The notes: a model not told the origin generated them from the sequence alone. A DNA stretch of 64,000 nt from an uncultured Actinomycetota bacterium (GCA_964601205.1 CAZRML010000020.1:2291-66290), one strand, 5' to 3'. Positions 3,634 to 37,715 are shown, counted from the stretch's first letter. Numbers and translations are program-made.

Positions 3634-3689
3634 AATTAGAAATTTTTTTAGTTAGTTTCAGTTCAATAGAATAAAAAGGGTTGCAGGTA

Positions 3690-4658: not shown

Positions 4659-5622
4659 TGTTAAAAAGAAGGCTAATGATATTTATTTATCTATTGTAGT
4701 TCCCATTTATAATGAGAAAGAAAGTGTTCTCAAGCTCTGTAGAGAACTTGAGAACACCCTTAATGGTATGTCTGAGAAATATGAAGTGCTGCTTATAGAT
4801 GACGGGAGCACGGACGGGACTTTTGAGGAATTAAAGAAAATACACGAAAAAAATAAGCTATTTAAAATAATAAGCTTTAGAAAAAATTTTGGGCAGACAT
4901 CTGCCATAAGCGCTGGTTTTGATTTTGCAGAGGGTGAGGTAATAATAACCCTGGATGCAGACCTGCAGAATGACACCCGCGATATCCCGCTGCTACTGGA
5001 TAAGATACATGAAGGCTATGATATAGTAAGTGGCTGGCGCGTTAATAGAAAGGATAAGGCTGTTACCAGGAAGTTTCCTTCAATGGTTGCAAATAAAATA
5101 ATATCAAAGCTTACCGGCGTTTATCTTCATGATTACGGCTGTACATTAAAAGCCTACAGAAAGTTAGTTATAAAAAACATTGATTTGTACGGCGAGATGC
5201 ACCGTTATATACCGGCCGTAGCAAGCTGGATGGGAGTAAGAGTAGCCGAGGTACCGGTAAGGCACCACAGCAGGAAATACGGCAAATCAAAGTACGGGGT
5301 TTCCAGAACAATAAAAGTGATTCTTGATATAATAACCTTAAAATTTCTTTTGAGTTATTCGCAGAGGCCGATTCAGGTATTTGGTGTACTGGGCTTATTT
5401 TCATCTACTGCAGGTCTTATTATAACAGCTTATCTTATTATAATGAGGGTATTTTTCAGCCAGCCACTCGGGGACAGGCCATTATTTATCCTGTCAATAT
5501 TTATGATTTTTATAGGGGTGCAGCTTATCACCATGGGACTCCTCGCAGAAGTACTTATGCGTGTACATCATGAAGTTAGAAATAGGACTACCTATGTTAT
5601 AAAAGAGATGGTTCTTAAATAA
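4651..5622 (+). CDS. GT2 polyprenol-phosphate glycosyltransferase (ArnC/GtrB-like)
   Basis: VVPIYNE, DDGSTD, NFGQTSA, DADLQ, DYGC.LKAY and two C-terminal TM helices. Confidence 0.88.
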   Translation: MGNVKKKANDIYLSIVVPIYNEKESVLKLCRELENTLNGMSEKYEVLLIDDGSTDGTFEELKKIHEKNKLFKIISFRKNFGQTSAISAGFDFAEGEVIITLDADLQNDTRDIPLLLDKIHEGYDIVSGWRVNRKDKAVTRKFPSMVANKIISKLTGVYLHDYGCTLKAYRKLVIKNIDLYGEMHRYIPAVASWMGVRVAEVPVRHHSRKYGKSKYGVSRTIKVILDIITLKFLLSYSQRPIQVFGVLGLFSSTAGLIITAYLIIMRVFFSQPLGDRPLFILSIFMIFIGVQLITMGLLAEVLMRVHHEVRNRTTYVIKEMVLK

Positions 5623-5635
5623 ATTTTAATTTATA

Positions 5636-6637
5636 ATGAATAAATTAATCCACCTTTTTAAACTGTTTAAAGTCTATATAAACTATTGCTTAAAAAAAAC
5701 ATACTGCAATTATTATCCTGTAAGAATCTGGATCGAGTTATCAAGCAGATGTAATCTTAAATGCCGTTTTTGTGTAAATAAGGACCTTCCATCGTCTGAA
5801 AAAGGGGACATGGATTTTAACCTTTATAAAAAAATAATTGATGAGATTGCCGGCAATGTTTATGATGTTAATCTGTTTCACAGGGGCGAGCCACTTCTTA
5901 ATAAAAATTTAGTACCCGCGATTGCTTACGCGGATAAAAAAGGAGTCAGGACCAGAATTCATACCAATGCTACTCTATTAAATAAGGAGCTTGACAGGAA
6001 AATAATACTGGCCGGCCTGGATTTGATTTCTTTTTCATTTGATGGATATACCAGGGAAGTTTATGAAAAAAACAGGTCCGGGGCAAAATTTGAAAAGACC
6101 CTTTCCAATATAGTTGATTTTTTGAAAGTGAAGGCGCAGTTAAAATCAAAAAAACCATATACCATTATCCAGGTTATGCAGGATGATGAAGCTTTATCAC
6201 TTGATGAGGCATCAGGACAGAAAAGAGATTTTTTAAAATTCTTTGAAAATCTCCCTCTGGATAGATTGGTAACAAGGACTCCCCATAACTGGGGTGGACT
6301 GCTTAAAATAAATGAGGAACCCCGGGGTAAATTTCGTGGCCGCAGGACAGCAGCATGCACTTTTCCCTGGTATTCACTGACTGTATTCTATGATGGCAGG
6401 GTCTTCTTATGTCCACAGGATTTTAAAGGTAAAATCTGCCTGGGTAATGCCTGCAGTGAACGGATAGAGGAAATTTTTAATGGTGAGATTATAAAAAATA
6501 TAAGGGAAAGATTCAGATCAGGGGAAATTGATGATCTTATTCCGTGCAATGATTGTGATAGAATCAGGAGGAAAACATTTCTCGGGGTACCTCTGGAGTA
6601 TCTGGGGGCATTTATAAGGGAACATCTGGGCGGTTAG
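5636..6637 (+). CDS. radical SAM protein with C-terminal twitch/SPASM-type domain
   Basis: CNLKCRFC (CxxxCxxC), GEPLL, C-terminal C..PW....V..DG.V..C..D.....LGN...CxxC. Confidence 0.9.
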   Translation: MNKLIHLFKLFKVYINYCLKKTYCNYYPVRIWIELSSRCNLKCRFCVNKDLPSSEKGDMDFNLYKKIIDEIAGNVYDVNLFHRGEPLLNKNLVPAIAYADKKGVRTRIHTNATLLNKELDRKIILAGLDLISFSFDGYTREVYEKNRSGAKFEKTLSNIVDFLKVKAQLKSKKPYTIIQVMQDDEALSLDEASGQKRDFLKFFENLPLDRLVTRTPHNWGGLLKINEEPRGKFRGRRTAACTFPWYSLTVFYDGRVFLCPQDFKGKICLGNACSERIEEIFNGEIIKNIRERFRSGEIDDLIPCNDCDRIRRKTFLGVPLEYLGAFIREHLGG

Positions 6638-6879
6638 GTAAACAATATCAATGTTAAATTAAGTAAAAATAATTAATTGCAGGGCAAATAAAATATTTTT
6701 GCTATAATAAATAAATTAAAGCTTCAGGCATCTTGAATTGAAGCATTTAAGGACTTTAGAAATATACACTGAAAAAAGTTTATATTGGAAAAAGGTATTT
6801 TTATTTTTAAAAAATCGGGATATTATGCCCGGTACTTTCAGGGTGTTTGACTTAAAGTCAAATTCAGGCATAAAGGGGG

Positions 6880-7623
6880 TTGATTGCAATAGAAAGATAT
6901 GAGGACAAAATACAAAAAGAACTTTTTTCTAAGAAAAAGTCAAAAATTGCCAAGTATGTAGACCTGTTTGTGGGAAAGAAAGGCTTTTTTAACTTACTAA
7001 AATACGAAATAATAACCATTCTTTTCCAGGATATGCCCGGAGCCATCGGTATCTTTTTTAGGAACTTATTTTATCCATTCCTGTTTAAAAAGGTGGGAAG
7101 GGGAGTAAGTTTTGGAAAATCAATAACTGTAAGGCATCCCCATAAAATAACTATTGATGATAATGTTGTGATAGACGACTACTGTGTTCTGGATGCCAAG
7201 GGGCTGGATAATAATGGTATTAATCTGGGCAAAAATATATTTATCGGCAGAAATAGTATACTGAGCTGTAAAAATGGAGATATAAACATCGGGGATAATG
7301 TGGTTATAGGGTTTAATAGTGAAATATTTTCAGGAAGCAGGGTAACCATAGAGGAAAATACCTTAATTGCAGCCTATGTTTATCTTACCGGGGGAGGGCA
7401 TGACTATTCCAGGGTGGATATCCCGGTATCGGAGCAGAAAAAAACATTTTATGGTATAAAAGTAGATAAGAATTGCTGGATAGGAGCAGGGGCTATAGTT
7501 TTTGATGGGGTTACTATAGGCAATGATACTATAATCGGAGCAGGAGCTGTAGTCTCAAAAGATATCCCGCCGTACTGTATTGCCTCGGGGGTGCCAGCGA
7601 AGGTTACAAAATCCAGGAAATAA
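6880..7623 (+). CDS. hexapeptide-repeat (left-handed beta-helix) acyltransferase
   Basis: Hexapeptide repeats, WIGAGA.V.DGV.IG...IIGAGAVV.KDIP.....GVPA; start codon uncertain. Confidence 0.85.
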   Translation: MIAIERYEDKIQKELFSKKKSKIAKYVDLFVGKKGFFNLLKYEIITILFQDMPGAIGIFFRNLFYPFLFKKVGRGVSFGKSITVRHPHKITIDDNVVIDDYCVLDAKGLDNNGINLGKNIFIGRNSILSCKNGDINIGDNVVIGFNSEIFSGSRVTIEENTLIAAYVYLTGGGHDYSRVDIPVSEQKKTFYGIKVDKNCWIGAGAIVFDGVTIGNDTIIGAGAVVSKDIPPYCIASGVPAKVTKSRK

Positions 7624-7646
7624 TTAAATTTTACCTGCATAATAAA

Positions 7647-8672
7647 ATGAAGAACAAGTTTATTTCTTTCTATAAGAAGAATAGAAAATCAATACTTCTG
7701 ACATTAAGAATTGTAATCAGTGTTTTACTGATTTTTTATCTGGTTAAGACGCAGTTTAAAAATTTTTCCAGTATAGTTGAGATTTTAAAATCATCCAGTA
7801 AAATTTTGCTTCTTCTTTCGTTATCCACCCATATTTTTGGCACATGGATAACAGCATTAAGGTGGAAAGCACTTTTAGATACCCAGAATGTGAAACTAAG
7901 CACAGCCAGTTTAAGCGTTACGGTGCTTATAGGCTTATTTTTTAATAATTTTTTGCCCACCAGCATAGGGGGTGATGTATTCAGAACCATTGATGCTTCA
8001 AAGAAGGCAAAAATTCCCTTAAGCTCATCGGCTTCTGTAATTCTGGTAGAAAGATTTTCCGGTGTGGTAAGCGCTTCTGTTTATGCTGTGGCAGCCTTAT
8101 TTTTAGGATTTACCGCTATTGGGAATCAGCCTGTGATAATTCCTGTAGTTATCTTTTTTGTAATTGTTGTAATTATAGCTTTAATAATTATTAAACCGTC
8201 AATTTTTGGCATAGGCAAATTCTTAAAGAGGTTCAGGTTTATAAATAAAATAAAGGAAAAGTTATCCAGCGCTTATAACACGCTTATGAGTTTCAAAAAC
8301 CATAAAATAGTGCTTTTAAAAGTTTTAACCTATAGCTTCCTCCTCCAGTTTGCTGTTATTTTGAACTGGTATCTGGCTGCCCGGGCTCTTGGAATTGAGC
8401 TAAGCCTTGCTGCATTTATTTTTATTGTTCCGGTGGTGTCAACTATAGCTATGATCCCCATCTCTGTCGGCGGTATAGGCCTGAGGGAAAATTCACTGGT
8501 TTTTATTATGGTTGCTATGGGTGTGGCAAATGATAAAGCTGCCCTTTGCTCTCTATTAATATTATTTATGCTAATTCTGATCGGACTGGTGGGTGGGATT
8601 GTGTATATAGTAAGGCCTTATTTTGAAAGAAAATTTAAGGAAGAAGACGACGGGGACAGCTTAGAAATTTAG
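7647..8672 (+). CDS. YbhN / lysylphosphatidylglycerol-synthase TM region flippase-like membrane protein
   Basis: Multi-TM protein; RW..LL, G.FFNNFLP.SIGGD..R, PIS.GGIGLRE motifs. Confidence 0.8.
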   Translation: MKNKFISFYKKNRKSILLTLRIVISVLLIFYLVKTQFKNFSSIVEILKSSSKILLLLSLSTHIFGTWITALRWKALLDTQNVKLSTASLSVTVLIGLFFNNFLPTSIGGDVFRTIDASKKAKIPLSSSASVILVERFSGVVSASVYAVAALFLGFTAIGNQPVIIPVVIFFVIVVIIALIIIKPSIFGIGKFLKRFRFINKIKEKLSSAYNTLMSFKNHKIVLLKVLTYSFLLQFAVILNWYLAARALGIELSLAAFIFIVPVVSTIAMIPISVGGIGLRENSLVFIMVAMGVANDKAALCSLLILFMLILIGLVGGIVYIVRPYFERKFKEEDDGDSLEI

Positions 8673-8929: not shown

Positions 8930-9886
8930 TTATTTTTTTTGAGAATTTTTCTTTAAAAGGTATAGAATTTCTTCCTGGTTAACTCTGATTCTTTTAATTA
9001 TATCTGCCGATATGCCCACAATAAAAAAAGTTACCGAAATGAACAGGAAAGTTCCCCCTACAAATCCCGACCAGACATTCGGGTGAAATGAGCCAATTGA
9101 TATATAAGTGTACAGCAAAATAAAACCGAAGAAGATGCTTACTATAAAAAAGAACAGGGCAATATATGAAAAAAAGGTAAATGGCCTGTGGTCCCTGTAG
9201 GTTTCAATAATTATTTTGAGTGAATTTATACCGTATGTGAAAAGGTTGGAAGAGATTTTTGAGACACGTGAAGGAAAATATTTTACCTTCACGGGGACCT
9301 CCATAATTTTGATTCCTTTAAAAGATAGGTCAATAAATGTTTCCTGGGAAAAAGTAAATTTTCCATGCAGGTTCAGTGAAAGAAGGGTTTTTTGCGAGTA
9401 TGCCCTGAAGCCGCATGATACATCATAAAATTTTTTTCCGATTAGTTTGCTGATTAAAATAGACATCATTTTATTTCCCCAGAATTTAGACAGGGGCATA
9501 ACGGGATAGTATTTTTTGTTAATAAAACGGGAGGCGGTCACCATATCAGCTTCGTTTTTAATAATAGGGTCAATGAGCAGGGGTATGTCTTCTGGATTGA
9601 ATTGTGCATCGCCGTCAATACTGACCATTAAATCAAAGTTCTTTTCCACAGCGTACTGAAGGGCTCTGCCGAATGCCACTCCATATCCCATATTATAGTG
9701 GTTCTTTATTACTTCGGCACCCGAGGCGGCAGCAATTTTCGTTGTTTCGTCTGTGGAACCGTCATCAATAACAAGGACATGGATTTTTGATATCCCCTTA
9801 ATTTTTCTGGGAATGTTCAGTATTACTTCGCCTATTTTTTCTTCCTCGTTATATGCAGGAATCGCAACCAGGAGTTTTTTTGCCAT
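8930..9886 (-). CDS. GT2 polyprenol-phosphate glycosyltransferase (DPM1-like) with C-terminal TM helices
   Basis: IPAYNEE, DDGSTD, IDGDAQF, D.SCGFRAY and two C-terminal TMs. Confidence 0.85.
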   Translation of the reverse strand: MAKKLLVAIPAYNEEEKIGEVILNIPRKIKGISKIHVLVIDDGSTDETTKIAAASGAEVIKNHYNMGYGVAFGRALQYAVEKNFDLMVSIDGDAQFNPEDIPLLIDPIIKNEADMVTASRFINKKYYPVMPLSKFWGNKMMSILISKLIGKKFYDVSCGFRAYSQKTLLSLNLHGKFTFSQETFIDLSFKGIKIMEVPVKVKYFPSRVSKISSNLFTYGINSLKIIIETYRDHRPFTFFSYIALFFFIVSIFFGFILLYTYISIGSFHPNVWSGFVGGTFLFISVTFFIVGISADIIKRIRVNQEEILYLLKKNSQKK

Positions 9887-9923
9887 GTTTCCTTTTTTAA
9901 AATTACCGGATATTTTGACAGAC

Positions 9924-9967
9924 TTTAACTTAACTAAAATAATTTTTTAACTTAACTAAAATAATTT
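9924..9967. repeat. perfect 22-bp tandem duplication
   Basis: TTTAACTTAACTAAAATAATTT at 9924-9945 and 9946-9967. Confidence 0.9.
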
Positions 9968-10121
9968 TATTACTATAACATAAAAAATAGTAGGCTTTAA
10001 GATGTTTTTATATTTTTCCTTTAATTTGAAAAAAATTATAAAAACTTATAATTTAATTAGTTTTAGTATAAAATGTGTTTCAAAATATTAGTTTGGCCAG
10101 GATCGCAGGGAAAAATCAAAA

Positions 10122-10496
10122 ATGAAATTTAGGGATACCGATAGAAAATTTTTTTATATTCTTATAGTTATTCTTGCCATCAGCATTAATCTACTGAGTA
10201 TAATTGCGGGAAAATATATAGGCATGAATCTCGAACTCTCAAGGGTTTTTGCCTTCTGGCTGTCTGTGATGGTTCTGACTTACGGCCTTAAATTTGTGTT
10301 ATGGTTTATCCTGCACAGGAAGTTTAAGCTCTCCTTTATATATCCGCTTCTGAGCTTAAATTACTTTTTTTCTTTGTTCCTGGGCAAAATTTTATTTGCC
10401 GAGCCCGTTACTTTAAAAAAAATTATCGGTTCGGCTGTTATAGTGGCAGGAGTTTTTATTATAACCATGTCCAGTAAGAAGCTGGAAGGGGTATAA
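10122..10496 (+). CDS. SMR/EamA-like 4-TM transporter (ArnE/ArnF-like flippase subunit)
   Basis: 124 aa, 4 TMs, LS..YPL.SL.Y, F.E.VT..K.IG...I..GV. Confidence 0.75.
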   Translation: MKFRDTDRKFFYILIVILAISINLLSIIAGKYIGMNLELSRVFAFWLSVMVLTYGLKFVLWFILHRKFKLSFIYPLLSLNYFFSLFLGKILFAEPVTLKKIIGSAVIVAGVFIITMSSKKLEGV

Positions 10497-10499
10497 ATT

Positions 10500-10838
10500 A
10501 TGCTTTATATTTTTTTGGCGGTTGTAACTCAATTTCTTGTTGCCCTGGCCCAGGTTATACTCAAAATAGGAGCAAAAAAGGTAGATTTCAGGAAGCCCTT
10601 TACCTGCAATTTTAAGAATAAGTATCTTTTAATAAGCATATTTTTGTTTTTACTCGTTCCGGTTCTTTCCATAATCACCATGAGAGTGATTGATTTTTCA
10701 AATTTTTATTCCTTTACGGCACTGAGCTACTTTTTTATAATGTTATTTTCATGGTGTATTCTCAGAGAAGATATTGACAGGTTAAGAATTGCGGGCAATA
10801 TCCTGGTTATTGCCGGAGTTATAATATTTAATCTGTAA
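10500..10838 (+). CDS. SMR/EamA-like 4-TM transporter (partner subunit)
   Basis: 112 aa, AQV.LK.GA, Y...ALSY, L.E....RI.G..L...GV. Confidence 0.75.
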   Translation: MLYIFLAVVTQFLVALAQVILKIGAKKVDFRKPFTCNFKNKYLLISIFLFLLVPVLSIITMRVIDFSNFYSFTALSYFFIMLFSWCILREDIDRLRIAGNILVIAGVIIFNL

Positions 10839-10885
10839 ATGTCGGTTTTTAAGTTTTTAAATTAAAAAATAAAAGGAAGTATATA

Positions 10886-12778
10886 TTGGAGAAGGTTAAA
10901 GCATTCATAACAGGAAAACAGGCAGTTATATTATCAATTCTTTCTTTTGCTGTTCCCCTGGTTATTTATCTTATGACTCTGGAACGTAAACTAATAGGCG
11001 GGGATACGGCATGGTACGCTCTTCAGGTTACCGAAATGAGTCTTATGGTTCCTACCGGATATCCGGTTTTTTCCATGCTGGAAAAGTTTTTTACCTTACT
11101 GCCGGTTGGAGATATAGCTTACAGGCTCAATCTTTTTTCAGCAATATTCGGCGCACTTACTATTTTATTTTTATTCCTATCAATTAATAAACTGGTAAAA
11201 AATGGAATGGTAAGCTTTATAAGTTCAATGATGTTTGCTTTTGCCGTGCCTTTCTGGGAAGTGGCAAACAGGCTGGAATTTGATACATTACAGACTTTTT
11301 TTATGACTTTATTGTTTTTTTCGGCTATTACCTATAATGAGAATAAAACCAGAAAGTATCTTTATTTTTTTGCTTTCTGCCTGGGGTTAAGTTTAACCAA
11401 CCACCCTCTTGTTTTTTTCCTGGTCCCGGCCATTATTTTATATGTTATTATTGTGAATCCGGGGATTTTTAAAAGCGCAAAGGCAATTATAATAAGCATA
11501 TTATATTTTGTTCTGCCTCTTTTATCATACCTGTATCTTCCCATAAGGTCGCTCCAGGGTTATGGGGAAGTAACCGGCCCTTTAAAATTTTTATATTATA
11601 TAACCGGAAGGGGTGTAACCGGGGAAGTCCATGGAGGAAGTTTTGGGTACAAGAGCATTTCATTAATTTTTAAGGTAATTAAAGATTATCTCGGCATGTT
11701 TTATGAAAGTTATGGTATCCTGCTTCTTATCATAGCACTTATTGGATTTATCATTCTGGTCAAAAAGAATGTAAAATTTGCCCTGTGCACATTTTTACTG
11801 GTGATTATAAACTTTGTTTTTCCTCCATTATATGCAGGTCATGCACTGAGAAATTATTTACTGTATTCAATGATTGTATTTTCTTTTTATATTGCTTCCG
11901 GGTTGCTGTTTATACTGGATGGGGTGATTCTGCTGTTTAATAAGTCATTAATGGGAAGGAAGGCTCTGAGGATTGATAAATTCTTAAAATATTTTCTGGT
12001 CACTATTATATTATTGTTTTTTCTTTTTATACCGGCCGGCCTGATAATAGAAAATTATCCTTCGCTTGACCATTCAGAGGTTTCTTACGTTTATAAATTC
12101 TGGGATGAAGCGTTTAAGAATATGGAAAGTAATTCCAGGGTGTATACCCTGGCTAAATCAACCAATATCGGGATGTTTGTGGATAAATACGAGCATGGAG
12201 ACAAAAACATAGAATATATATCTCATAAGGTGCCGGAATATACGGCAAGCAATATGACGAAAGCTCTTGAAGATGGTATTACAGTATATTATGTGGGCAA
12301 TGAAGAGGTATTAAAAAAATTATTTAATGCCGAGCAGGTAGGTAAAAGCTATTTATGGAGCAGGTATGATGAATGGTTAAGACTATTCAGGGTTACTGAA
12401 CCTGCAGCGTCTATTCCTGAAATTAGCTACTTTAGCGATAGTTATACCAGAAGGTTCGGGGAGGAATTCACCATTGAATATATTGTCAGGAATAAGAATA
12501 AAGAAAGAATTAAGATTACATCACTGGAGCTCGAGCTTCCTGAAAATATTAAATTCATAGAGACTTCCCCCGGAGGGTATATCAGCCAGGGCCCCGGCCT
12601 GAGCCAGGGCATATATATGTGGGTAGGTGATTCATATGTCATAGAGGGTGGGGAAGAGATAAACTTAATTGTAAAACTAAAAGGAACTGCGCCCGGTGAG
12701 TCATTTATAAAATTTAGACTGACAACCGGCGGGTTTTACGTTGACTGTGAAAGTGCAGGGATAGAAATAAAAGATTAA
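10886..12778 (+). CDS. DUF2723 / TMEM260-like GT-C membrane glycosyltransferase with C-terminal Ig-like domain
   Basis: GD after TM1, P.GYP, LP.G.IAYR.NL.SA.FGA, GL.L.NH, YLYLPIRS; about 11 TMs. Confidence 0.8.
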   Translation: MEKVKAFITGKQAVILSILSFAVPLVIYLMTLERKLIGGDTAWYALQVTEMSLMVPTGYPVFSMLEKFFTLLPVGDIAYRLNLFSAIFGALTILFLFLSINKLVKNGMVSFISSMMFAFAVPFWEVANRLEFDTLQTFFMTLLFFSAITYNENKTRKYLYFFAFCLGLSLTNHPLVFFLVPAIILYVIIVNPGIFKSAKAIIISILYFVLPLLSYLYLPIRSLQGYGEVTGPLKFLYYITGRGVTGEVHGGSFGYKSISLIFKVIKDYLGMFYESYGILLLIIALIGFIILVKKNVKFALCTFLLVIINFVFPPLYAGHALRNYLLYSMIVFSFYIASGLLFILDGVILLFNKSLMGRKALRIDKFLKYFLVTIILLFFLFIPAGLIIENYPSLDHSEVSYVYKFWDEAFKNMESNSRVYTLAKSTNIGMFVDKYEHGDKNIEYISHKVPEYTASNMTKALEDGITVYYVGNEEVLKKLFNAEQVGKSYLWSRYDEWLRLFRVTEPAASIPEISYFSDSYTRRFGEEFTIEYIVRNKNKERIKITSLELELPENIKFIETSPGGYISQGPGLSQGIYMWVGDSYVIEGGEEINLIVKLKGTAPGESFIKFRLTTGGFYVDCESAGIEIKD

Positions 12779-12888
12779 ATTAAAAAGAATCAACCTGGAT
12801 TTATTAGTTTGTTAGATTTATTCTGATATATTGATAAAAATAAGGCAGGTAGATAGACAAAGTAAAAAGATGGAAGTATATAATAGTT

Positions 12889-14484
12889 GTGATGAAAAAA
12901 TTCATTAAAGAGAATAATATGAAAGTTTTATTTGCTTTTATAATAATTTTTCCGGTAATTTTTACCGGCTGTTCTGGTTTTGGGCAGGTTATAAGCAGCG
13001 GTGATGGTGGCGCCAGTTCGTCCGGAGAGGAGCCATTGCCATCATTTTCCGGTTCTTATATAGAACTAATTGACGCAAATGGCGGAAATACATATGGTGG
13101 TGAAGATGTAAAGGTAAAAATAAGTGTGGTAAATAGCGGCAGTGCGGAAGCAAAAAATGTGGAAGTTAATCTTATAACTCACGACCTGTTTGAACCAGGC
13201 ATTGGGCGGACATCATGGAATATAGATGTTCTTGGAGCAGGGGAAGAAAGTAATTTTGTCACCGGTCTGACTTTAATAGATGATATAAATGAGGACACCA
13301 GGGCTGAGGTCGGGCTGGAGATATCTTCAGATGAAGTAGACTCTTTTATAGGTCCTGATTGTAAAATGCTGGTTTACAGTGAAAGAAAATTTGATGGAGG
13401 TTTTATTCCCATAATAGGCATGCATGCCATAGAGGATCATATTGAAGAGCCGATAGAGCTTTATACCGGTCACTTTGATAAACTGTGCGGCGTATTGAAA
13501 GAATATGGTTATGAAACTATTACATTAAATGAACTTTTAGATTATATAGATTACGGAAAATCGCTTCCTGAAAAACCAATAATCATAACATCCGATGACG
13601 GATTTCAGGATGTTTATACCAATGGGTTCCCCATTCTTAAAAAGTACGGGTACAGGATGACTGTATTTCTGGTAACCGGCGCAGTTGGAGAGAGCGAAGC
13701 TGATAGAAAAACAAATGCATATTTTGAGAAAGAGATAGATAATGACCGGCCCATACGACCGATACTTATATGGCCCGAGATTGAAGAAATGTATGAATAT
13801 GGTTGTGAGTTTCAATCCCATACAGTAAATCATGTCAGGCTGGGGATTGCTGACGATGAGGAAATTTTATATGAACTTACCCGATCAAAAGAGGATATTG
13901 AATCCCATCTGGGAAATGAAGTTTTATTTGTTGCGCTGCCAAAGGGAAATTATAATCCTGATAAGACACTTTTATTTGCTGAGGCCGGCTACAGGGGTTC
14001 GTTAAGGCATGCCGGCGGAGCAGAGGATACAGAATCAATTGACCTCTTTAATATGAAGAGAGTGGAGTTTAACAGCCTGATTTCTCCAGACCAGTATGTT
14101 AATTATTTAAATCTGGATAGAAGTATTGAAATTAGCTATGAGGCTGGAGATAGAATAAGAAAAGAGGGAGAAGAATTTATCATAGAATTTAATATAAAAA
14201 ATACCGGCGAAGATTGGGCTAAAATTACTTCACTGGAGCTTGAGCTTCCGGATAACATTGAGCTGACCGGAATCAGCCCTGAAGGATATATAAAACAATA
14301 TCCGGGTTTGAGTGAAGGTATATATATGTGGGTAAGCGATTCATATATTGTAGATAGTAATGGCCAGATTAATTTAATGGTTAAAGTCAGGGGCACCGAT
14401 TCCGGGCAGTCTGTTGTAAAATTCAGGGCAACTTACAAAAATAATTATATTAATTGTGATGATATTGAAATAGAAATAAGATAG
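12889..14484 (+). CDS. polysaccharide deacetylase (NodB/CE4) lipoprotein flanked by Ig-like domains
   Basis: Lipobox FTG-C; K..IITSDDG, SHTVNH, P.G.Y motifs; beta-rich N- and C-terminal domains; ATG 12919 is an alternative start. Confidence 0.82.
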   Translation: MMKKFIKENNMKVLFAFIIIFPVIFTGCSGFGQVISSGDGGASSSGEEPLPSFSGSYIELIDANGGNTYGGEDVKVKISVVNSGSAEAKNVEVNLITHDLFEPGIGRTSWNIDVLGAGEESNFVTGLTLIDDINEDTRAEVGLEISSDEVDSFIGPDCKMLVYSERKFDGGFIPIIGMHAIEDHIEEPIELYTGHFDKLCGVLKEYGYETITLNELLDYIDYGKSLPEKPIIITSDDGFQDVYTNGFPILKKYGYRMTVFLVTGAVGESEADRKTNAYFEKEIDNDRPIRPILIWPEIEEMYEYGCEFQSHTVNHVRLGIADDEEILYELTRSKEDIESHLGNEVLFVALPKGNYNPDKTLLFAEAGYRGSLRHAGGAEDTESIDLFNMKRVEFNSLISPDQYVNYLNLDRSIEISYEAGDRIRKEGEEFIIEFNIKNTGEDWAKITSLELELPDNIELTGISPEGYIKQYPGLSEGIYMWVSDSYIVDSNGQINLMVKVRGTDSGQSVVKFRATYKNNYINCDDIEIEIR

Positions 14485-14588
14485 AAAACCCGCTCAAATA
14501 AAACTTTATCTAAAGGTCAGCTTTTTGTTATAATATTGGAATTGTTTTTAAAGAATTTAATGGTGATAAGAATAATGGTGTATTAATA

Positions 14589-16427
14589 ATGAAGATAATT
14601 GAAAAAATACTGGATTATTTAAAAAGAAATAAAAAGTGGGTTTTTATTATGGCCGGTTCTCTGGTCATAGCTGCAGGAGCTTTTTTAATTTATTATTTTA
14701 AATTCTATCTGACGGAACCCAATTTTGATGATGAAAATTTTAATTATGTATACAGCGATACAGGAGATAATATAAAGCCGGGGGACAGGATTACTTATGC
14801 AGTAAATTACAAAAATACGGGTAACAGGAATGTAAGCAAACTGGTTATAGAAGTTAATTTGCCGGAACATACTTCCTTTGTGTCTTCGGACCGCAGTGAC
14901 GTTTTAAACATTGCCGGGGACGGGAAAAAACTGGGTTTTAACATTGGAGAGGTTAAGAAGAACGAGAGAGACACCCTGTGTTTTGTGGTGGAAGTAAATA
15001 GCCCGCTGGATGATGGTACTGTAATCATGCTGGATAAAGTGAATTTTAATTACATTATAGGGAAAGAGACGTTTAATAATACCCTGAGCCCCGTTCTGAC
15101 CACCGAAGTTGAAAGCAGCCCTGATTTGAGTAGCTTCAGTGTAGAAGCTGTAGATGAGAATGGCGGGGTCATTATGCTGGGTGATATCCTGAAGTATAAT
15201 TTAACAGTGAAAAATGATGGCGATATGAGTGCATCCGGTGTTGAACTAAAAAGTAATATATCTGAATATACAGACATAATTGAAGATTCTATTACCGGCC
15301 AGGGGGAATATAAAAATAACAGCGTGCTATGGGAAATTGACAACTTAGAAGTGAATACAAAAAGGGTTCTTTCCTTTAAGGTCAGGGTGAAAGAAGACTT
15401 AATGGGCGAAGAAGTTATAACCAGTGAAAGTATTTTAAAGTACGGGTCAATTGTAATAGAAAAAAAAGTGGAAGAAAAACTGAGCCTGTTCTCTGATTTA
15501 GCTACATCGGAAAACTACATATACGATACAAATGGAGGCAATCTATACCCGGGAGAGACTATAAGTGTAAAAATTATTGTCAGAAACACCGGTATAAAGA
15601 AAGAAGAAAATTATAGTGTTATCTGTCCCACGCCGGAAGGGGCTACTTACGTCAGCCGATCAGGTATCGCTGAGGGAATAAGTTGGAGTGATGATATAAG
15701 GGGGCTTATATGGGACCTTGAGAACCTGGGTGTTGAAGAGGAAAAAGAGATTACTTTTAGGATAAAGGTGAACGAAAATCTTGCTAATTCAGGCGGTACA
15801 ATAACCACTCATTTTAAAATTGAAAGCAGCAATGCGGTTATTGAACTGCAGCCTAAAAGCCTGAATGTAACGGGAAACGCAAGGGTTAATATTGTAGCCA
15901 TAGGTGATTCACTGATAGCAAAATCAAACTGGGTGCAGACATTTGACCAGCTTCTGGAGGCTAATTATCCTTATGCAGAGTATAATACAATTGCCAGTGC
16001 TAAGAACGGCGAGTTAACCCGTGAGGGGTATGCAAGATTTGACAGCACCGTTGCTGTACATAATCCTGATATAGTTATAATTGCCTATGGAACCAATGAT
16101 GTGGGTCCCCGTTATTCCGGATTCTCGGTTAGCATGGAGGGCCTGATTGTAAAAGCAAAAAGCCTCGGCGCAAGAGTATTTGTTAACCTTATCGGGCCAC
16201 TGAACTGGCCGGAAAAAGAAAATTATGCTAAATATAATGACACAATAAGGCAGATTGCTGCAAAGCACGGTGCAGTGGTTATAGATGTTACAACTCCGCT
16301 TTCACAGAATCCCGGCGGGTATCTAAGTGATGGCATGCACTACAGTTCAGCAGGTGCTTCGGTTGTGGCGCATACAGTATACAGTTATGTTTCCCAGTAT
16401 CTCGGCAGCATCGGACAGAGACTTTAA
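14589..16427 (+). CDS. membrane-anchored protein with three DUF11-like Ig repeats and a C-terminal SGNH/GDSL hydrolase domain
   Basis: N-terminal TM; repeats PGD.ITY....KNTG; SGNH blocks GDSL, GTND, DGMH. Confidence 0.82.
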   Translation: MKIIEKILDYLKRNKKWVFIMAGSLVIAAGAFLIYYFKFYLTEPNFDDENFNYVYSDTGDNIKPGDRITYAVNYKNTGNRNVSKLVIEVNLPEHTSFVSSDRSDVLNIAGDGKKLGFNIGEVKKNERDTLCFVVEVNSPLDDGTVIMLDKVNFNYIIGKETFNNTLSPVLTTEVESSPDLSSFSVEAVDENGGVIMLGDILKYNLTVKNDGDMSASGVELKSNISEYTDIIEDSITGQGEYKNNSVLWEIDNLEVNTKRVLSFKVRVKEDLMGEEVITSESILKYGSIVIEKKVEEKLSLFSDLATSENYIYDTNGGNLYPGETISVKIIVRNTGIKKEENYSVICPTPEGATYVSRSGIAEGISWSDDIRGLIWDLENLGVEEEKEITFRIKVNENLANSGGTITTHFKIESSNAVIELQPKSLNVTGNARVNIVAIGDSLIAKSNWVQTFDQLLEANYPYAEYNTIASAKNGELTREGYARFDSTVAVHNPDIVIIAYGTNDVGPRYSGFSVSMEGLIVKAKSLGARVFVNLIGPLNWPEKENYAKYNDTIRQIAAKHGAVVIDVTTPLSQNPGGYLSDGMHYSSAGASVVAHTVYSYVSQYLGSIGQRL

Positions 16428-16544
16428 TTTATGGGACAGGAGATAGTCTGGCTGTAGAAGATATGCGACCTTATTAATTATTAAAATAATCAGAGTATAA
16501 TTAATATATTGGAAGAGCAAGACCAGGCAGGAAGGAGATAGATT

Positions 16545-17075
16545 TTGAGAGTTTTTTTAATAGTTTTTTCTTTTATTAATGCTGTTTTTTATGTTTTTAT
16601 TTATTCTTATTTTGATAAGATTCTGGAGATTCTTGAAGGATTGGATATATCAGCAATAGCAACAAATTATATTAAACTGGCGGCCCTATTAATTGTCGGG
16701 TTCTGTATAGGTGTAATAGTGATGCTTGTATTAAAATTAAAACTAAAAAGAAGCCTTTTTAGTTTTAAGAACCTGGTGATAGTCGGTTTTTTCCCTTTTA
16801 TCTGTATGGTGCTGTCTGAAGGTACAATTACCAGCTTTATTATTAATAAATTTTTTAACTCCAGTGAAAGATTGAGTGAGCTTGCATTTTATCTTTTCTC
16901 AAGGCAGACTATATGGTCCATATGGCTGGGCTTTTCTATAGGTTCATCAATCCGATTCAGTTTTCCCGGAAGAAAATACAGACATGTTTCAATTGAAGGA
17001 AAAGAAAAAGCAGAATTTCCATCACTTGCTAGGGAGTCTGATACAGAAAAACAGGGTCATAAGCACTTCCAGTAA
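16545..17075 (+). CDS. hypothetical 4-TM membrane protein (paralog of 19030..19491)
   Basis: TTG start with SD AAGGAG; hydrophobic; SELAFY.FSR.T.W..WLG.S.G.S.R motif shared with its paralog. Confidence 0.75.
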   Translation: MRVFLIVFSFINAVFYVFIYSYFDKILEILEGLDISAIATNYIKLAALLIVGFCIGVIVMLVLKLKLKRSLFSFKNLVIVGFFPFICMVLSEGTITSFIINKFFNSSERLSELAFYLFSRQTIWSIWLGFSIGSSIRFSFPGRKYRHVSIEGKEKAEFPSLARESDTEKQGHKHFQ

Positions 17076-18795
17076 TACTGGTAAGTCTCTTTAGGTTTGA
17101 ACCATCGGCATTGACTATAAATATTTCAAGCTGGCCGTCAGCAGTGCCCTCGAAGGTTATATATTTATTATCCGGAGATATGTCAGGGTGCCTGCTGTTT
17201 GAGAGGTTCCCGCTGATTTTTTGTAAATTTTCTCCATTGATATTTATAGTATAAACGGATTCATTGTCACTAAAAACAATAGTTTCTCCATCAATGGAAA
17301 TTGCAGGGACCCTCTGTCTCATGTCTGCGTCTGATATCTGTTTAATATTAGTACCGTCATAGTCCATCATATATATTTTTTCATTCCTTGACGCCCCTGA
17401 TTCAAAAATGACTCTGTACTGGAAAGGATGACCGTAAGGATGCCAGTCCGGGACGTTCGGATTAAATGTAATTCTCTTCATATCGCTTCCATCACTGTTC
17501 ATCCTGTATATTTCATAGTCGCCCTCTATGTATGCTTCAAAGAAAATATATCTTCCATCAAAGGACCAGGCGGGATACCCGCTTCTCCATGGATTGTAGG
17601 TAAGCTGCTCCTTTTCGGTTCCATCCCAGTTCATAACTATTATCTGCCAGACACCATTAATATCTGAAGTATAGGCAATTTTTTTACCATCGGGTGAAAC
17701 AGCAGGATAATTATCTTTTCCGGAATAATCTGTCAGCTGCATAAGTTCGGTGCCATCTATGTTCATACTGAATATATCCTCGTTTCCATTTTTGCTGGAA
17801 GTAAATACTATCTTTCTGGTCGAATATTCTGTATCGGGGTCCCTTGGTCTGCCTCCGGTGATGTGGTCTTTATTTATTGCCCAGCCGCTTATCTCTATGG
17901 ATTCGTTGCTCAGGTTAGCCTGTGCTGAAATTATAGCCATGGATTCCTTCTTTTCACCTTCTATTACAATATTTCTTAAGCCCAGGTTATATGTTCCTGA
18001 AGTAGAGAAAGAGTAAATATACAGAGTGTTTTCGCTGCCGGCTTCAAGATTACTACCGTCAAAATTTAATAAATATCCGGAACTGGTATAACCGGCGTTT
18101 CCAAAAGCGCCGGCTACATCCTGTCTTTCAATTCCATAGTCTACTTCACCGGCGGGCTTCCCGAATCCTTCAGGCCCGTTTAAATATATTTCAATACGGT
18201 CAATACCGGGGTCACTTTGCTGGCTGAGATCAACTGACCAGCCTGAAATTTTAATATTCGATTTATCAGCTTCTTTTATTATTTCATTGTGGGAAGGGTC
18301 ATCTATAGATAGTCTGATATTTTCGTCTGTCTCTTCGCTGCCCGGGATGCTAACCTTCTGGCGGGTATGACTCCATCCATATTCTGGTATCAGAACATAG
18401 ATATAAAGGTAATGGGTAGAGCCGGGCTCAAAGGTGTATGCTCTGTTTTTTTCGGCCAGGAGGAAACCGCTTTCTGAGAATTCCCCCCCATAGATATTAT
18501 AGGCTTCCGGGGAGGTCATACCATATTTTGCTTCTCCCAGCAGTATGCCATTATTCCTGTCACCATCAAGATATATCTCTATTACTGCGATTTCATCCTC
18601 TTTCACTTCCTGAACCGGTTCTTCTTCAACTACAGGCTCTGGCTCCTCTTCTTCAACTATGGGTTCGCCTGTTTCAGGCCCGGCAGTTTCTTCTTTATCA
18701 GTAGTTCCTGACCCGGTATATTTTAAGACTATAAAACCGAGGAATATAACAGCTATCAGGAGCAAAACTATAATAATTGTAGTTACTGTTCTCAT
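17029..18795 (-). CDS. membrane-anchored protein with Ig-like repeats and TolB-like (PD40) beta-propeller
   Basis: N-terminal TM, acidic linker, repeated P..SPDG..I.F/Y and I..MN.DG....QLT blades. Confidence 0.82.
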   Translation of the reverse strand: MRTVTTIIIVLLLIAVIFLGFIVLKYTGSGTTDKEETAGPETGEPIVEEEEPEPVVEEEPVQEVKEDEIAVIEIYLDGDRNNGILLGEAKYGMTSPEAYNIYGGEFSESGFLLAEKNRAYTFEPGSTHYLYIYVLIPEYGWSHTRQKVSIPGSEETDENIRLSIDDPSHNEIIKEADKSNIKISGWSVDLSQQSDPGIDRIEIYLNGPEGFGKPAGEVDYGIERQDVAGAFGNAGYTSSGYLLNFDGSNLEAGSENTLYIYSFSTSGTYNLGLRNIVIEGEKKESMAIISAQANLSNESIEISGWAINKDHITGGRPRDPDTEYSTRKIVFTSSKNGNEDIFSMNIDGTELMQLTDYSGKDNYPAVSPDGKKIAYTSDINGVWQIIVMNWDGTEKEQLTYNPWRSGYPAWSFDGRYIFFEAYIEGDYEIYRMNSDGSDMKRITFNPNVPDWHPYGHPFQYRVIFESGASRNEKIYMMDYDGTNIKQISDADMRQRVPAISIDGETIVFSDNESVYTININGENLQKISGNLSNSRHPDISPDNKYITFEGTADGQLEIFIVNADGSNLKRLTSITGSAYDPVFLYQTP

Positions 18796-19029
18796 TTTGT
18801 TTTATACCTTTTTATCTATATATTACAGATTATAGGATTTGGACGTTAAGATTGATTTAAATACACTGATAATAATTATAAACTATAAATGCATTTAATA
18901 TATTTTTAAGTTTTAGAGTATAACAGAATACAATATTAATTGAAATTAGTATTTTTTTAAGTTAACATCTGGTTATCAGTTATTTTAGAAAAAAATGATA
19001 TAAATGGAAAGAAGACTGCGGATAAAAAA

Positions 19030-19491
19030 ATGAGAATTTTTCTTATCATATTTAGTTTTATAAATATAATTCTCTATTATACCGCTTTTGCATATTTTGA
19101 TAATATCACCGGTGCACTGGCAGCTTACAGCCTGCCTGCCGGTTTTTTAAGTTTTTTGAGGCTTATTATAATTCTCATTCTCGGGTTTATGATTGGATTA
19201 CTGATAATTATCAGTATGAGGCCGATAGTAAATAGGAATTATTTTGACATAAAAACATTTTTGATTTCAGGCTGTATACCTGCTATTGCTCTATTGCTGT
19301 ATAAAACTGGTCTGGTGAATATAGCAGTAACTGAACTGTTTGATTCCAATCTTACTATTTCAGAGCTTGCTTTTTATTTCTTCTCCAGGGAAACTGTCTG
19401 GGGCCTGTGGCTTGGGATTTCCATGGGTACATCGGTTAGATTAAAACTAGGAACTTCAAGCAAAAGGTTCAGGCATCAGGTTGCCGATTAA
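19030..19491 (+). CDS. hypothetical 4-TM membrane protein (paralog of 16545..17075)
   Basis: MRIFLIIFSFIN vs MRVFLIVFSFIN; SELAFYFFSRETVWGLWLG. Confidence 0.75.
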   Translation: MRIFLIIFSFINIILYYTAFAYFDNITGALAAYSLPAGFLSFLRLIIILILGFMIGLLIIISMRPIVNRNYFDIKTFLISGCIPAIALLLYKTGLVNIAVTELFDSNLTISELAFYFFSRETVWGLWLGISMGTSVRLKLGTSSKRFRHQVAD

Positions 19492-19536
19492 ATGCAATGC
19501 AGTGGACCCGGAAGATATATTAAGCTGCAAAAGATA

Positions 19537-21546
19537 TTATCGGTAGAGGAAACTGCCATCTTTATCGATATAAGAAGAATTGGTCAGATTGGTTTTTTCT
19601 CCGGTGGCAAGATTTATTAAAATTAAATCTTCGCGGGAACCTTTTCTTTCTTCATAAATTATATATTTTCCATCAGGTGAAAAAGATGGGTGGCCGTCCT
19701 CTTCAGGGTTGCTGTTTAACCTGGTTTCATTCTGGCCGGTATAATCCATAATCCAGATATCGGCATATCTATCAGAATATCTCATATAAGTTATTTTACT
19801 TCCGTCCGGTGATACATCCGGAACCCTTCTTCTTGGCCCATCAGTACATATTTTTCTTTTTCCGGAGCCGTCGTGATTCATTACATAAATATTTTCATGT
19901 CCGGTAGTTCCTGATTCGTATATAACCATATATTCAGAAGGATGCCCGGTTGGGTGCCAGTCATGGGAGTCGCGGTTAAAGGTAAGCCTTTTTTGCTCTG
20001 TTCCGTCGCTTTTAATTCTATATATTTCCCAGTCTCCATCACTATATATCTCAAAATATATATATTTTCCGTCATAAGACCAGGAAGGATAGGCACATCT
20101 ATGGTTGCCCGTGGTAATTTGCTTTTTATTATTACCATTCCAGTCCATAACCATAATCTGCCAGACCCCGCCTATATCAGCAGTGTAGGCAATTTTTTCT
20201 CCATCGGGAGATACTTCCGGATACAGGTCGCTGCCGCTGCTGCTGGTCAGGCGGGTGAGCCCTGTCCCGTCAATATTTATACTGTATATATTTTCATTGC
20301 CATCTCTATTGGAATTAAATATTATTTTTTTGGTATTGTGCTGCCCGGTATCTATAGAAGGCTCTTCCACGACCTTTCGTTTTTCTTCAAGGTATTTTTC
20401 AAGGACATTTTTATCGATTGCCAGTCCGGTTATTTCAATAATGTTCTCATTATTGAACTTTTGTGTGTCAACCCTGGCATTAATTATTGCTTTTTCTTCT
20501 CTTATCCCGGATAAGTAAATATCTCTTGTTTCATAATTAAACGAATTGTCCACGGAGCTAAACGCATAAATGAATATAGTGTGGGTGGAACCGGGCTCAA
20601 GGTCAATTAGATTTTCAAATGTGTAACCACTATTTAAATAGTTTGAATTTTCAAGATAGCCGGCAACGTCCTCTCTGGGAATTCCGTATTCAGTATTCCC
20701 GATAAATTTTCCATAACCCTCTGGTCCATCAAGGTAGATTTCAATGTTTGATATTCCGGGGTTTTCTTTGTACCTAAGGTCAACAGCCCATCCTTTAATA
20801 TTCTGTAGGCTGGAGGTTATACTCTTATCTTCCGGTTTTTCTACAAATATGGTTATTTTTTTCTCGCATTTTTCTTCTCCGGACAAACTTACCTGCTGTC
20901 TTGTGTAGCCCCACTCTGACTGCCGGGTGTAAAAGTAAATATAAATATAGTGGTTAGAACCGGCTTCAAGGTTCAGATTACTGTCATTTTTAATGTTAAA
21001 TCTAAAACCTGTATTTATAAAATCCTCACCGTACAGCTGTAATGCTTCCACAGATTCAAGGTTTGAAGTTGTTTCCCCGAGGTATATGCCGTTTTCCATA
21101 TCTCCATCAAGAAAAAATTTTATGGTACCGGCTTTTATCTCTTCTCTGTCTTCTTCCTCCTTTTCTATGGTTTCTTCTCCATCTGTATTTTCACTATCTT
21201 CGTTTTGTTTATTCTCAGATACTTCTGCATCCTGGCTTGCAGAGTCTAAAGAACTGTCATTCTTATCATCCGGAGTTTCAGGGTTATCAGCGGTATCCAC
21301 GGCCGGAGTGTCACTGATATCTTTAACTATGTATTCGCGGTTAGTAATAAAAAATTTTTGTATATCATTTATTGTTTCTACCCTTGAGACAGGTAATTTG
21401 TTTTTATCCCATGGTTTTGCTGATAGCGGCCCTTCTGAAGTGTTTTCCCGGCTTTCGGCGTCTTTTGTTGTACTGATTACCGCGATGCTTAAGAGGGTGC
21501 TTATTGATAAAAAAATAATTAGAAGTATTATTATTATAAATCTCAT
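19537..21546 (-). CDS. membrane-anchored protein with Ig-like repeats and TolB-like (PD40) beta-propeller (paralog of 17029..18795)
   Basis: Same architecture; SPDG.KIAYT.DI.GVWQI.VM.W.G shared with its paralog. Confidence 0.82.
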   Translation of the reverse strand: MRFIIIILLIIFLSISTLLSIAVISTTKDAESRENTSEGPLSAKPWDKNKLPVSRVETINDIQKFFITNREYIVKDISDTPAVDTADNPETPDDKNDSSLDSASQDAEVSENKQNEDSENTDGEETIEKEEEDREEIKAGTIKFFLDGDMENGIYLGETTSNLESVEALQLYGEDFINTGFRFNIKNDSNLNLEAGSNHYIYIYFYTRQSEWGYTRQQVSLSGEEKCEKKITIFVEKPEDKSITSSLQNIKGWAVDLRYKENPGISNIEIYLDGPEGYGKFIGNTEYGIPREDVAGYLENSNYLNSGYTFENLIDLEPGSTHTIFIYAFSSVDNSFNYETRDIYLSGIREEKAIINARVDTQKFNNENIIEITGLAIDKNVLEKYLEEKRKVVEEPSIDTGQHNTKKIIFNSNRDGNENIYSINIDGTGLTRLTSSSGSDLYPEVSPDGEKIAYTADIGGVWQIMVMDWNGNNKKQITTGNHRCAYPSWSYDGKYIYFEIYSDGDWEIYRIKSDGTEQKRLTFNRDSHDWHPTGHPSEYMVIYESGTTGHENIYVMNHDGSGKRKICTDGPRRRVPDVSPDGSKITYMRYSDRYADIWIMDYTGQNETRLNSNPEEDGHPSFSPDGKYIIYEERKGSREDLILINLATGEKTNLTNSSYIDKDGSFLYR

Positions 21547-34938: not shown

Positions 34939-34995
34939 ACCAAAAAATAACAATATATATAAATAACAATATAAAAAATAGCGGGGAGATTAAGA

Positions 34996-36021: not shown

Positions 36022-36065
36022 AATAAAGATAATAGCCGGATAAGATTGATCGGGGAGAGGCCAAT

Positions 36066-36899: not shown

Positions 36900-36945
36900 G
36901 TTTAAAAATATAACTTCAGGATTAAATTCAAGGGTGAATTAAGAC

Positions 36946-37626: not shown

Positions 37627-37715
37627 TCTGCTTTATCGGAGGAAGTTATAAATGGTTAATTATTATACAGAATAAAATACAGGTTGCTGCAAAATATAAT
37701 GGGGTTTTAATTAAC

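Follow-up and report, generated by a model that had tools for sequence, protein, structure and literature searches.

A linked cluster of envelope glycosylation genes at positions 8930-21546 was analysed in a 64,000-nucleotide stretch of DNA (the window) from an uncultured Actinomycetota bacterium (GCA_964601205.1 CAZRML010000020.1:2291-66290). At its centre lies a GT-C glycosyltransferase of the DUF2723/TMEM260 family, flanked by a GT2 of the lipid-linked-sugar synthase type, a candidate flippase, an exported de-N-acetylase and an SGNH hydrolase. The explanation we place first, tentatively and at a little under an even chance, is that this cluster transfers an N-acetylhexosamine (HexNAc) to a wall glycopolymer outside the cytoplasm and de-N-acetylates it there; we infer both the donor and the acceptor. 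What is new is that the GT-C belongs to the DUF2723 family, that both its donor pocket and its acceptor side appear remodelled across a whole clade, and that it has a putative targeting domain in common with an exported deacetylase. An earlier note on the same DNA had instead proposed a complete prokaryotic analogue of human TMEM260 that O-mannosylates the Ig-like domains of neighbouring proteins. The eight open reading frames (ORFs) on which that proposal was built were all recovered at the same positions, each with its assigned domain above the Pfam cut-off, and the GT2 gene does diverge from the SMR/EamA pair, across a spacer of 235 bp. Two paralogous ORFs for proteins with four transmembrane helices (4-TM proteins) had been overlooked. 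The features of the cluster are as follows.

8930-9886, minus strand: polyprenyl-phosphate sugar synthase-type GT2, 318 amino acids (PF00535, 84.9 bits)
9887-10121: intergenic region between the divergent GT2 and EamA genes, with a promoter-like site and a 22-nt repeat
10122-10496, plus strand: EamA/SMR-like half-transporter 1, 124 amino acids (PF00892, 29.2 bits; cut-off 28.2)
10500-10838, plus strand: EamA/SMR-like half-transporter 2, 112 amino acids (PF00892, 31.6 bits; cut-off 28.2)
10886-12778, plus strand: DUF2723/TMEM260-family GT-C, 630 amino acids (PF11028, 93 bits, cut-off 24.2; also PMT_2)
12398-12775, plus strand: beta-sandwich at the C-terminus of the GT-C, in the place of the TPR domain of TMEM260
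12889-14484, plus strand: exported CE4 de-N-acetylase with CARDB (PF01522, 83.9 bits)
14589-16427, plus strand: membrane-anchored SGNH/GDSL hydrolase (three PF01345 (DUF11) domains; PF13472 (GDSL_2), 69.8 bits)
16545-17075, plus strand: 4-TM protein, 176 amino acids, overlapping propeller gene a convergently
17029-18795, minus strand: anchored TolB-like PD40 propeller protein a (PD40a), 588 amino acids (PF07676)
19030-19491, plus strand: 4-TM protein, 153 amino acids, converging on propeller gene b
19537-21546, minus strand: anchored TolB-like PD40 propeller protein b (PD40b), 669 amino acids (PD40), paralogue of PD40a

On its modelled structure, the protein encoded at 10886-12778 is a member of the GT-C superfamily and of the TMEM260 family. 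Human TMEM260 (9rql_A) was the sole PDB-sequence match in a single-sequence search (E 3.4e-21), and a profile of 67 homologues (alignment A1, of which 30 rows are from the clade) matched TMEM260 residues 29-477 with E 3.9e-90. The gene scored 97.4 bits against PF11028 in a scan of the genome (1.66 Mb, 96% complete, with the window as contig C20), and genome searches gave no second PF11028 or PMT_2 gene and found no YfhO. The AlphaFold2 (AF2) model (predicted local distance difference test score, pLDDT, 92.2; predicted template-modelling score, pTM, 0.86) has a transmembrane core up to residue ~394, a Rossmann-like alpha/beta domain at ~400-510 and a C-terminal Ig-like beta-sandwich at 512-629. 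Its top Foldseek matches were ArnT, followed by PglB and STT3 (probability 1.00), and VIA-align gave Z scores of 25.4 with Pmt1-Pmt2, 24.9 with Pmt4 and 24.4 with ArnT. The fold and the family kinship to TMEM260 anticipated in the earlier note were thus both recovered.

DUF2723 is very large in bacteria, and 8725 representative clusters fall within E<=1e-3. In a literature search that was thin on subscription journals, no characterised bacterial enzyme was found, human TMEM260 being the sole characterised member, in agreement with the earlier note. The accessible part of the TMEM260 discovery paper, the one paper found to name DUF2723, mentions bacteria only as 'distant homologs'. Across the phylum, PF11028 was present in 41/201 sampled genomes, often in 2-5 copies per genome, with positives running through families such as f14 (14/14), f31 (5/5) and f25 (4/6). 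Close homologues of the GT-C came from Actinomycetota metagenome-assembled genomes (MAGs) including Candidatus Humimicrobiaceae, Humimicrobium oleiphilum UBA1414, Hydromicrobium and Humimicrobiales; the host itself is a Humimicrobiia-type Actinomycetota MAG.

TMEM260 is the O-mannosyltransferase of the endoplasmic reticulum for IPT domains (PF11028; PDB 9RQL/9RQM/9RQN), and the window's GT-C resembles it in family, GT-C fold and Rossmann-like luminal domain. As described in the accessible text of its structural study (10.64898/2026.03.17.711096), TMEM260 touches mannose through D52, H67, Y267 and R355 and the phosphate through R264, uses D441 of the luminal Rossmann-like domain as catalytic base, and recruits its acceptor through the TPR domain, with P-x5-P-x3-G-P-x2-[GA]-G-G-x2-[ST] as the proposed sequon. 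Two elements of this site were kept. The aspartate of the GGD40 motif, equivalent to TMEM260 D52, was invariant in 67/67 A1 rows, and a conserved arginine, R242, aligned with the R264 region on the phosphate side.

Much of the remainder differed. In the alignment, TMEM260 H67, E55 and Y267 paired with V55, W43 and V244 of the GT-C. Position 55 in 120 close homologues (placed with hmmalign) was V in 113, P in 4, a gap in 3 and H in none, and in the 30 clade rows of A1 it was V, P or Q, with the H67 equivalent kept in 0/30. Among representative clusters of the family (150, of which 134 include the N-terminus), H was found at this position in 118/134, and the clade accounted for 12 of the 16 exceptions. 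Likewise, position 244 was V, T, A, P or W in the clade rows (Y/F in 0/30); an aromatic Y or F was found there in 107 of the representative clusters versus 1/120 close homologues. An acid aligned with D441 in none of the 30 clade rows, in comparison to a G-D motif after the first luminal strand, aligned with D441, in 28/37 distant bacterial representatives. The clade also carries its own inserted loop with an invariant H249-G-G. At the C-terminus, TPR was matched in TMEM260 and in distant bacterial DUF2723 rows (the TPR matches of the A1 profile stem from these distant rows), whereas the clade has the beta-sandwich in its place. Taken together, the alignments suggest that, relative to both TMEM260 and mainstream bacterial DUF2723 proteins, the clade has replaced residues that contact the sugar, the base of the luminal domain and the TPR domain that recruits the acceptor. 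Because the sugar pocket and the target-binding end are rebuilt and the latter is tied to a deacetylase, the GT-C probably does not mannosylate Ig-like domains.

This target-binding end ties the GT-C to a neighbouring gene. Over 118 amino acids, the beta-sandwich of the GT-C was 52% identical to the C-terminus of the deacetylase (14101-14481; E 1e-43), and the genome has no copy of the domain beyond these two. VIA-align related the domain to macroglobulin (MG), cohesin and pilin-like Ig folds (Z 11-12). A tree was built from 80 of these beta-sandwiches over 126 alignment columns, with rows L066_12139 and L101_8001 assigned to the deacetylase and L073_9516 and L074_9603 to the GT-C by genomic position. 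Deacetylase copies formed at least three separate groups in it: a basal clade of 7 rows, a clade of 21 rows, and a pair beside GT-C copies. The 21-row clade (support 100/99) was nested among genus-level GT-C copies. Deacetylase copies scattered in this way among GT-C copies are suggestive of repeated exchange of the module between the GT-C and deacetylase genes.

Both exported enzymes beside the GT-C appear catalytically intact. The CE4 Asp-Asp and His-x3-His pattern was present in the deacetylase, with TSDDG (234-238), H311 and H315 invariant in 23/23 orthologues. Its PDB relatives (6dq3, PgaB, BpsB and IcaB-type) are polysaccharide GlcNAc de-N-acetylases; its NCBIfam matches were PgaB and IcaB, below cut-off. 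A lipobox-like FTGC indicates that it is probably a lipoprotein. In the SGNH protein, the GDS (439-441), GxND (501-504) and DxxH (581-584) motifs were invariant in 23/23 orthologues, and a PDB search returned a single weak match. It is more likely that the deacetylase and the SGNH protein are co-workers of the GT-C than its substrates.

On the donor side, the earlier note had called the divergent GT2 DPM1-like. The GT2 assignment stood, with a GT-A domain (VIDDGSTD and DGD motifs) and two C-terminal transmembrane helices (242-260 and 279-297); DPM1 was too specific a name. Its full-length PDB matches were ArnC (E 7e-14 to 1e-13) and then Pyrococcus furiosus DPMS (7e-11), and its NCBIfam scores, all below cut-off, were 128.6 bits for AglJ, 89 for a Dol-P-hexose transferase, 76.5 for PpgS and 59 for ArnC. 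The protein shared 34% identity over 208 amino acids with a PpgS-like short GT2 from the sister loci, as against 27% with an ArnC-like GT2 encoded at 4651-5622. Of the EamA proteins, half 1 scored 43 bits for ArnE (cut-off 92) and 37.6 for ArnF (cut-off 99), and half 2, whose gene begins 4 bp past that of half 1, scored 22.6 for ArnF. They reach only general EamA family membership, and may be regarded as a candidate flippase for a lipid-linked sugar. Within the spacer, a perfect 22-nt tandem direct repeat in two copies (9924-9967), which may be an operator, is overlapped by a near-consensus promoter-like site on the plus strand (9915-9943) that we treat as a lead only. The counts of the promoter and terminator scans were not above those of shuffled sequence (60 vs 48.2 ± 7.2 and 9 vs 10.3, respectively).

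Conservation of the cluster was assessed in 68 loci from GTDB species representatives, of which 29 clade loci had a GT-C at least 40% identical to that of the window and at least 3 kb on each flank; GT2 genes were sought within 3 kb of the GT-C, deacetylase and SGNH genes within 5 kb, and propeller genes within 8 kb. GT-C orthologues (E<=1e-10) occurred in 20/24 genomes of the same family and in 0/16 outside it. A polyprenyl-phosphate-type GT2 accompanied the GT-C in 26/29 clade loci. This was the long form in 16/29, and the EamA pair occurred in 17/29, always together and with the GT-C. A short GT2 with a DUF2304 gene took its place in 10/29, upstream, downstream or divergent, and neither donor module was found in 3/29. 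That one donor module takes the place of another next to the same GT-C speaks well for these genes as the source of the donor it uses. The deacetylase was near the GT-C in 21/29, the SGNH gene in 21/29, and either of them in 23/29; this linkage persisted despite changes of order and orientation and inversions (L066, L057, L075, L076 and L093). Hence the linkage of GT2, small membrane proteins and GT-C that the earlier note had expected across relatives was found, and it holds even where genes have been rearranged or the donor module exchanged. It extended less well to the propellers, which were near the GT-C in 13/29 loci, a link confined to close relatives, with synteny including them complete within the genus. 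Beyond the clade, in Zixibacteria and Ignavibacteria (L098-L108), one or two tandem DUF2723 genes lead straight into an ArnC-like GT2 gene, with an epimerase gene next in line (GT2 after DUF2723 in 6/6 loci with both flanks and 10/10 with a downstream flank); no deacetylase or SGNH gene was present in these loci.

The logic of donor synthase, flippase and GT-C, with conserved linkage, is therefore well supported, the flippase role of the EamA pair being one that we infer. It fits the multi-component scheme of transmembrane glycosylation, with a GT-A lipid-sugar synthase, a flippase and a GT-C, that is set out in the accessible text of PMC8035078. The sugar is harder to name. GT2 specificity is not fixed by sequence, since the NCBIfam matches all lie far below their cut-offs. 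The main and indirect reason to favour HexNAc is that both characterised GT2 and DUF2304 pairs make HexNAc lipids. According to the accessible part of 10.1101/180810, GacJ of Streptococcus pyogenes and Rv3632 of Mycobacterium tuberculosis are DUF2304 proteins that stimulate GacI and PpgS, which are GlcNAc-P-polyprenol and GalNAc-P-polyprenol synthases, respectively. PpgS was also the best NCBIfam match of the short GT2s of sister loci (195, 91 and 116 bits; cut-off 370).

Under the explanation that we favour, the GT2 would work on the cytoplasmic side of the membrane, charging polyprenyl phosphate with a sugar (an N-acetylhexosamine being the likeliest) drawn from a nucleotide sugar, and the EamA heterodimer would flip the lipid-linked product. 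The GT-C would then pass the sugar to an extracytoplasmic acceptor held by its beta-sandwich. The deacetylase, docked on the same acceptor through its own copy of that domain, would turn HexNAc into hexosamine (HexN), and the SGNH esterase would trim O-acyl groups. We favour as acceptor a wall polysaccharide, which the earlier note had raised as a caveat. This would be the wall glycopolymer of the surrounding glycosyltransferase cluster, rather than protein linkers. In a bolder and doubtful form, the DUF2723 and CE4 proteins of Humimicrobiia would constitute a self-contained extracytoplasmic amino-sugar decoration machine, in which a portable Ig-like module docks both enzymes on one acceptor. 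The GT-C would have altered its sugar pocket, given up the luminal base of its family and taken on this module in exchange for its TPR, trading the module with the deacetylase repeatedly.

Several observations weigh against this explanation. The best NCBIfam match of the GT2, AglJ, is a hexose enzyme, and this and the other matches are far below their equivalog cut-offs; the EamA proteins likewise score below those of ArnE and ArnF. DUF2304 was not found in the window's own genome, so the HexNAc argument is an analogy with sister loci. A second lipid-sugar synthase (4651-5622) and an MprF-like flippase domain (7647-8672) could feed the same GT-C. The residue equivalences between the GT-C and TMEM260 are predicted from alignment. 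Five clade loci (L064, L065, L068, L071 and L073) have the GT-C with a short GT2 and DUF2304, and neither deacetylase nor SGNH gene within 5 kb. One genome, G014, has its GT-C on one contig and its deacetylase and SGNH genes on another (L054 and L101). Finally, low-complexity linkers rich in S, T, E, P and G follow the anchors of all four exported neighbours, and bear on the foremost alternative.

That alternative, which we consider unlikely yet worth setting beside the favoured one, is the O-glycosylation of disordered linkers on anchored exoproteins, the neighbours and possibly many others, in the manner of the streptococcal GtrB/PgtC2 or Pgf systems or of Ppm1/Pmt elsewhere in the Actinomycetota. 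The earlier note had described the deacetylase, the SGNH protein and the two propeller proteins as exported and rich in Ig-like domains. Each has one N-terminal hydrophobic segment, and Ig-like domains recognised by Pfam were confined to the SGNH protein and the deacetylase; a structural model and a language-model search are the source of the assignment in the propellers. The AF2 model of PD40a (pLDDT 86) is a six-bladed propeller with a Foldseek match to TolB (E 2e-18), preceded by a transmembrane helix, a disordered acidic linker (25-62, pLDDT <50) and beta modules (71-308) that the language-model search related to Big_7 (score 0.94, a lead only). PD40b is ~42% identical to PD40a. Disordered linkers of the S/T/E/P type are acceptors of GtrB/PgtC2 and Pgf in streptococci, where the addition of Glc or GalNAc by GT2 and GT-C systems is established (accessible part of PMC12041528). 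As the neighbours' linkers are rich in S, T, E, P and G, they could be acceptors of this kind, and the GT-C is the sole PMT_2/DUF2723-type enzyme of a genome in which no YfhO was found. However, the linkers are more acidic than Ser/Thr-rich (5 S/T and 15 E in 43 residues of PD40a), and the position of the base that activates the peptide in TMEM260 is not conserved. Linker glycosylation would also leave unexplained both the GT-C-type C-terminus of the deacetylase and the linkage of the SGNH gene.

A different order of events, which we judge rather improbable, would follow the Arn and galactosamine (GalN) pathways: the flipped lipid-linked HexNAc is deacetylated first, and the GT-C then places HexN on the wall, adding positive charge. 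The common beta-sandwich could serve to hold the deacetylase on the GT-C, and the remodelled pocket (W43, V55, V244 and the H249-G-G loop) would suit a differently substituted sugar. This order also matches the proposal for the actinobacterial galactosamine pathway in the accessible text of PMC9671496. Against it, the solved structures nearest to the deacetylase are of enzymes whose substrates are polymers and not lipid carriers, and no deacetylase is nearby in the five clade loci named above.

It is more doubtful still that these genes share a neighbourhood without sharing a pathway, such that the deacetylase, SGNH protein and propellers are ordinary exoenzymes of wall remodelling (for example of peptidoglycan) and the GT2, EamA and GT-C proteins cooperate alone. 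The setting would allow this, as an envelope glycan island spans 2-32 kb of the window, with at least 12 further glycosyltransferase or sugar-nucleotide genes within 30 kb, and so would the loci in which the deacetylase and SGNH genes are remote from the GT-C or absent nearby. Such a reading sits poorly with a beta-sandwich exclusive to the GT-C and the deacetylase and apparently exchanged between them repeatedly, and with a linkage that persists through inversions.

The prokaryotic TMEM260 analogue, in which the GT2 would provide polyprenyl-phosphate-mannose and the GT-C would O-mannosylate the Ig-like domains of the four neighbours, draws on PF11028 membership, the shared catalytic-site aspartate (D40 = D52), the Ig-like domains nearby, GDP-mannose genes in the window and full synteny including the propellers within the genus, yet is highly improbable given that the H67, Y267 and D441 equivalents typical of other bacterial DUF2723 proteins are missing in the clade, that TPR is replaced, that the propellers are linked in just 13/29 loci, and that the TMEM260 sequon, whether full, core or minimal ([GA]GG..[TS]), is absent from the deacetylase, SGNH protein, PD40a and PD40b. 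Mannose as donor and Ig domains as TMEM260-style acceptors were accordingly not upheld, and nor was the complete analogue, its pocket, base and acceptor domain all being different. The GDP-mannose genes are indeed present (42104-46868); they lie 30 kb off, past a trp operon, and include Gmd (GDP-mannose dehydratase), which scored above its equivalog cut-off.

Further genes of the window were recorded alongside the cluster. Each 4-TM gene converges on one propeller gene, and the stretch 16545-21546 is therefore a duplicated two-gene module; the 4-TM proteins are 39% identical to each other, and the one at 16545-17075 had no Pfam or NCBIfam match and gave unnamed clusters only in the Atlas. A second lipid-sugar module (3681-8672) encodes a GalE-like epimerase, an ArnC/PgfS-like GT2 (241 and 181 bits), a radical SAM/SPASM protein, a WcaF-like hexapeptide acetyltransferase and a stand-alone MprF-flippase-like LPG_synthase_TM protein, and 16-19 of the 29 clade loci have its genes in the flanks that were retrieved. 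Another half-size EamA/ArnF-like protein, the third of the window (26887-27285; ArnF 48.6 bits, below cut-off), adjoins a 470-amino-acid GT2 in a run of GT1/GT2 genes. The trp operon (trpE, D, C, F, B and A-like; 33421-39796) is complete and stands between two glycan-biosynthesis blocks. An RF2-like ORF (54937-55785) sets in at PCRF profile position 69, and its N-terminus is probably encoded in a different reading frame, in line with the frameshift typical of prfB. The G+C content of the window, ~0.37, is low enough for an archaeal or CPR origin to have been considered; this was rejected on the tmRNA, smpB and secA genes and on the Actinomycetota relatives, and the window is bacterial. It carries nearly all its genes on the plus strand, and also contains secA, ftsEX and the following RNA gene.

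60498-60850: tmRNA, beside smpB

Comparison with known systems places the cluster among extracytoplasmic decoration pathways. In the GacI/GacJ/GacK/GacL system, which adds the GlcNAc side chain of the group A carbohydrate of S. pyogenes, a synthase, a flippase and a GT-C are likewise set inside a polymer cluster, and sister loci of the window carry a GacI-like short GT2 with a DUF2304 protein (the GacJ family) beside the same GT-C. Unlike Gac, the GT-C here is a DUF2723 protein, the flippase candidate is an EamA pair and not Wzx or GtrA, and the deacetylase shares a domain with the GT-C. The PpgS/Rv3632/Rv3779 pathway for arabinogalactan GalN in M. tuberculosis and Corynebacterium glutamicum belongs to the same phylum and, like the sister loci, has a HexNAc-P-polyprenol synthase and DUF2304; an extracytoplasmic deacetylation step and GT-C transfer are further likenesses. 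It differs in that the window has a long GT2 and no DUF2304. PF11028 gave no match in the C. glutamicum control genome, so the GT-C of that organism is not a DUF2723 protein. The flippase and the deacetylase of the GalN pathway are reported as unidentified in the accessible part of PMC9671496.

The Arn pathway of lipid A (ArnC, ArnD, ArnE/ArnF and ArnT) resembles the cluster in that ArnC is nearest to the GT2 among solved structures, the small membrane proteins form an ArnE/F-like pair, and ArnT is the top Foldseek match of the GT-C. In contrast, the window's proteins score far below the Arn equivalog cut-offs, and the deacetylase is exported. ArnD is a CE4-type hydrolase that acts on the cytoplasmic side. 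Lipid A is not expected as an acceptor because the host is an actinobacterium. Streptococcal GtrB/PgtC2 and Pgf also combine a lipid-sugar GT2 with a GT-C and, in the accessible text of their source, act on membrane-anchored exoproteins outside the cell; unlike here, their GT-Cs belong to the YfhO family, and the linkers in the window are acidic and not poly-Ser/Thr.

The cluster presents a bacterial DUF2723 protein embedded in the classical logic of lipid-linked sugar, flippase and GT-C, in a compact set of six genes for a synthase, two flippase halves, a transferase, a deacetylase and an esterase. The function of human TMEM260 is not simply transferable to it, as a whole clade appears to have replaced the sugar contacts, luminal base and acceptor domain. 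The domain common to transferase and deacetylase is a clue to proteins that act on the same target. Should the amino-sugar explanation be true, it would suggest which kinds of enzyme may carry out flipping and deacetylation in the GalN pathway of mycobacteria and corynebacteria. If the decoration machine is real, it would bring a flippase and an outside deacetylase together in one cluster and would be the first function assigned to a bacterial DUF2723 protein.

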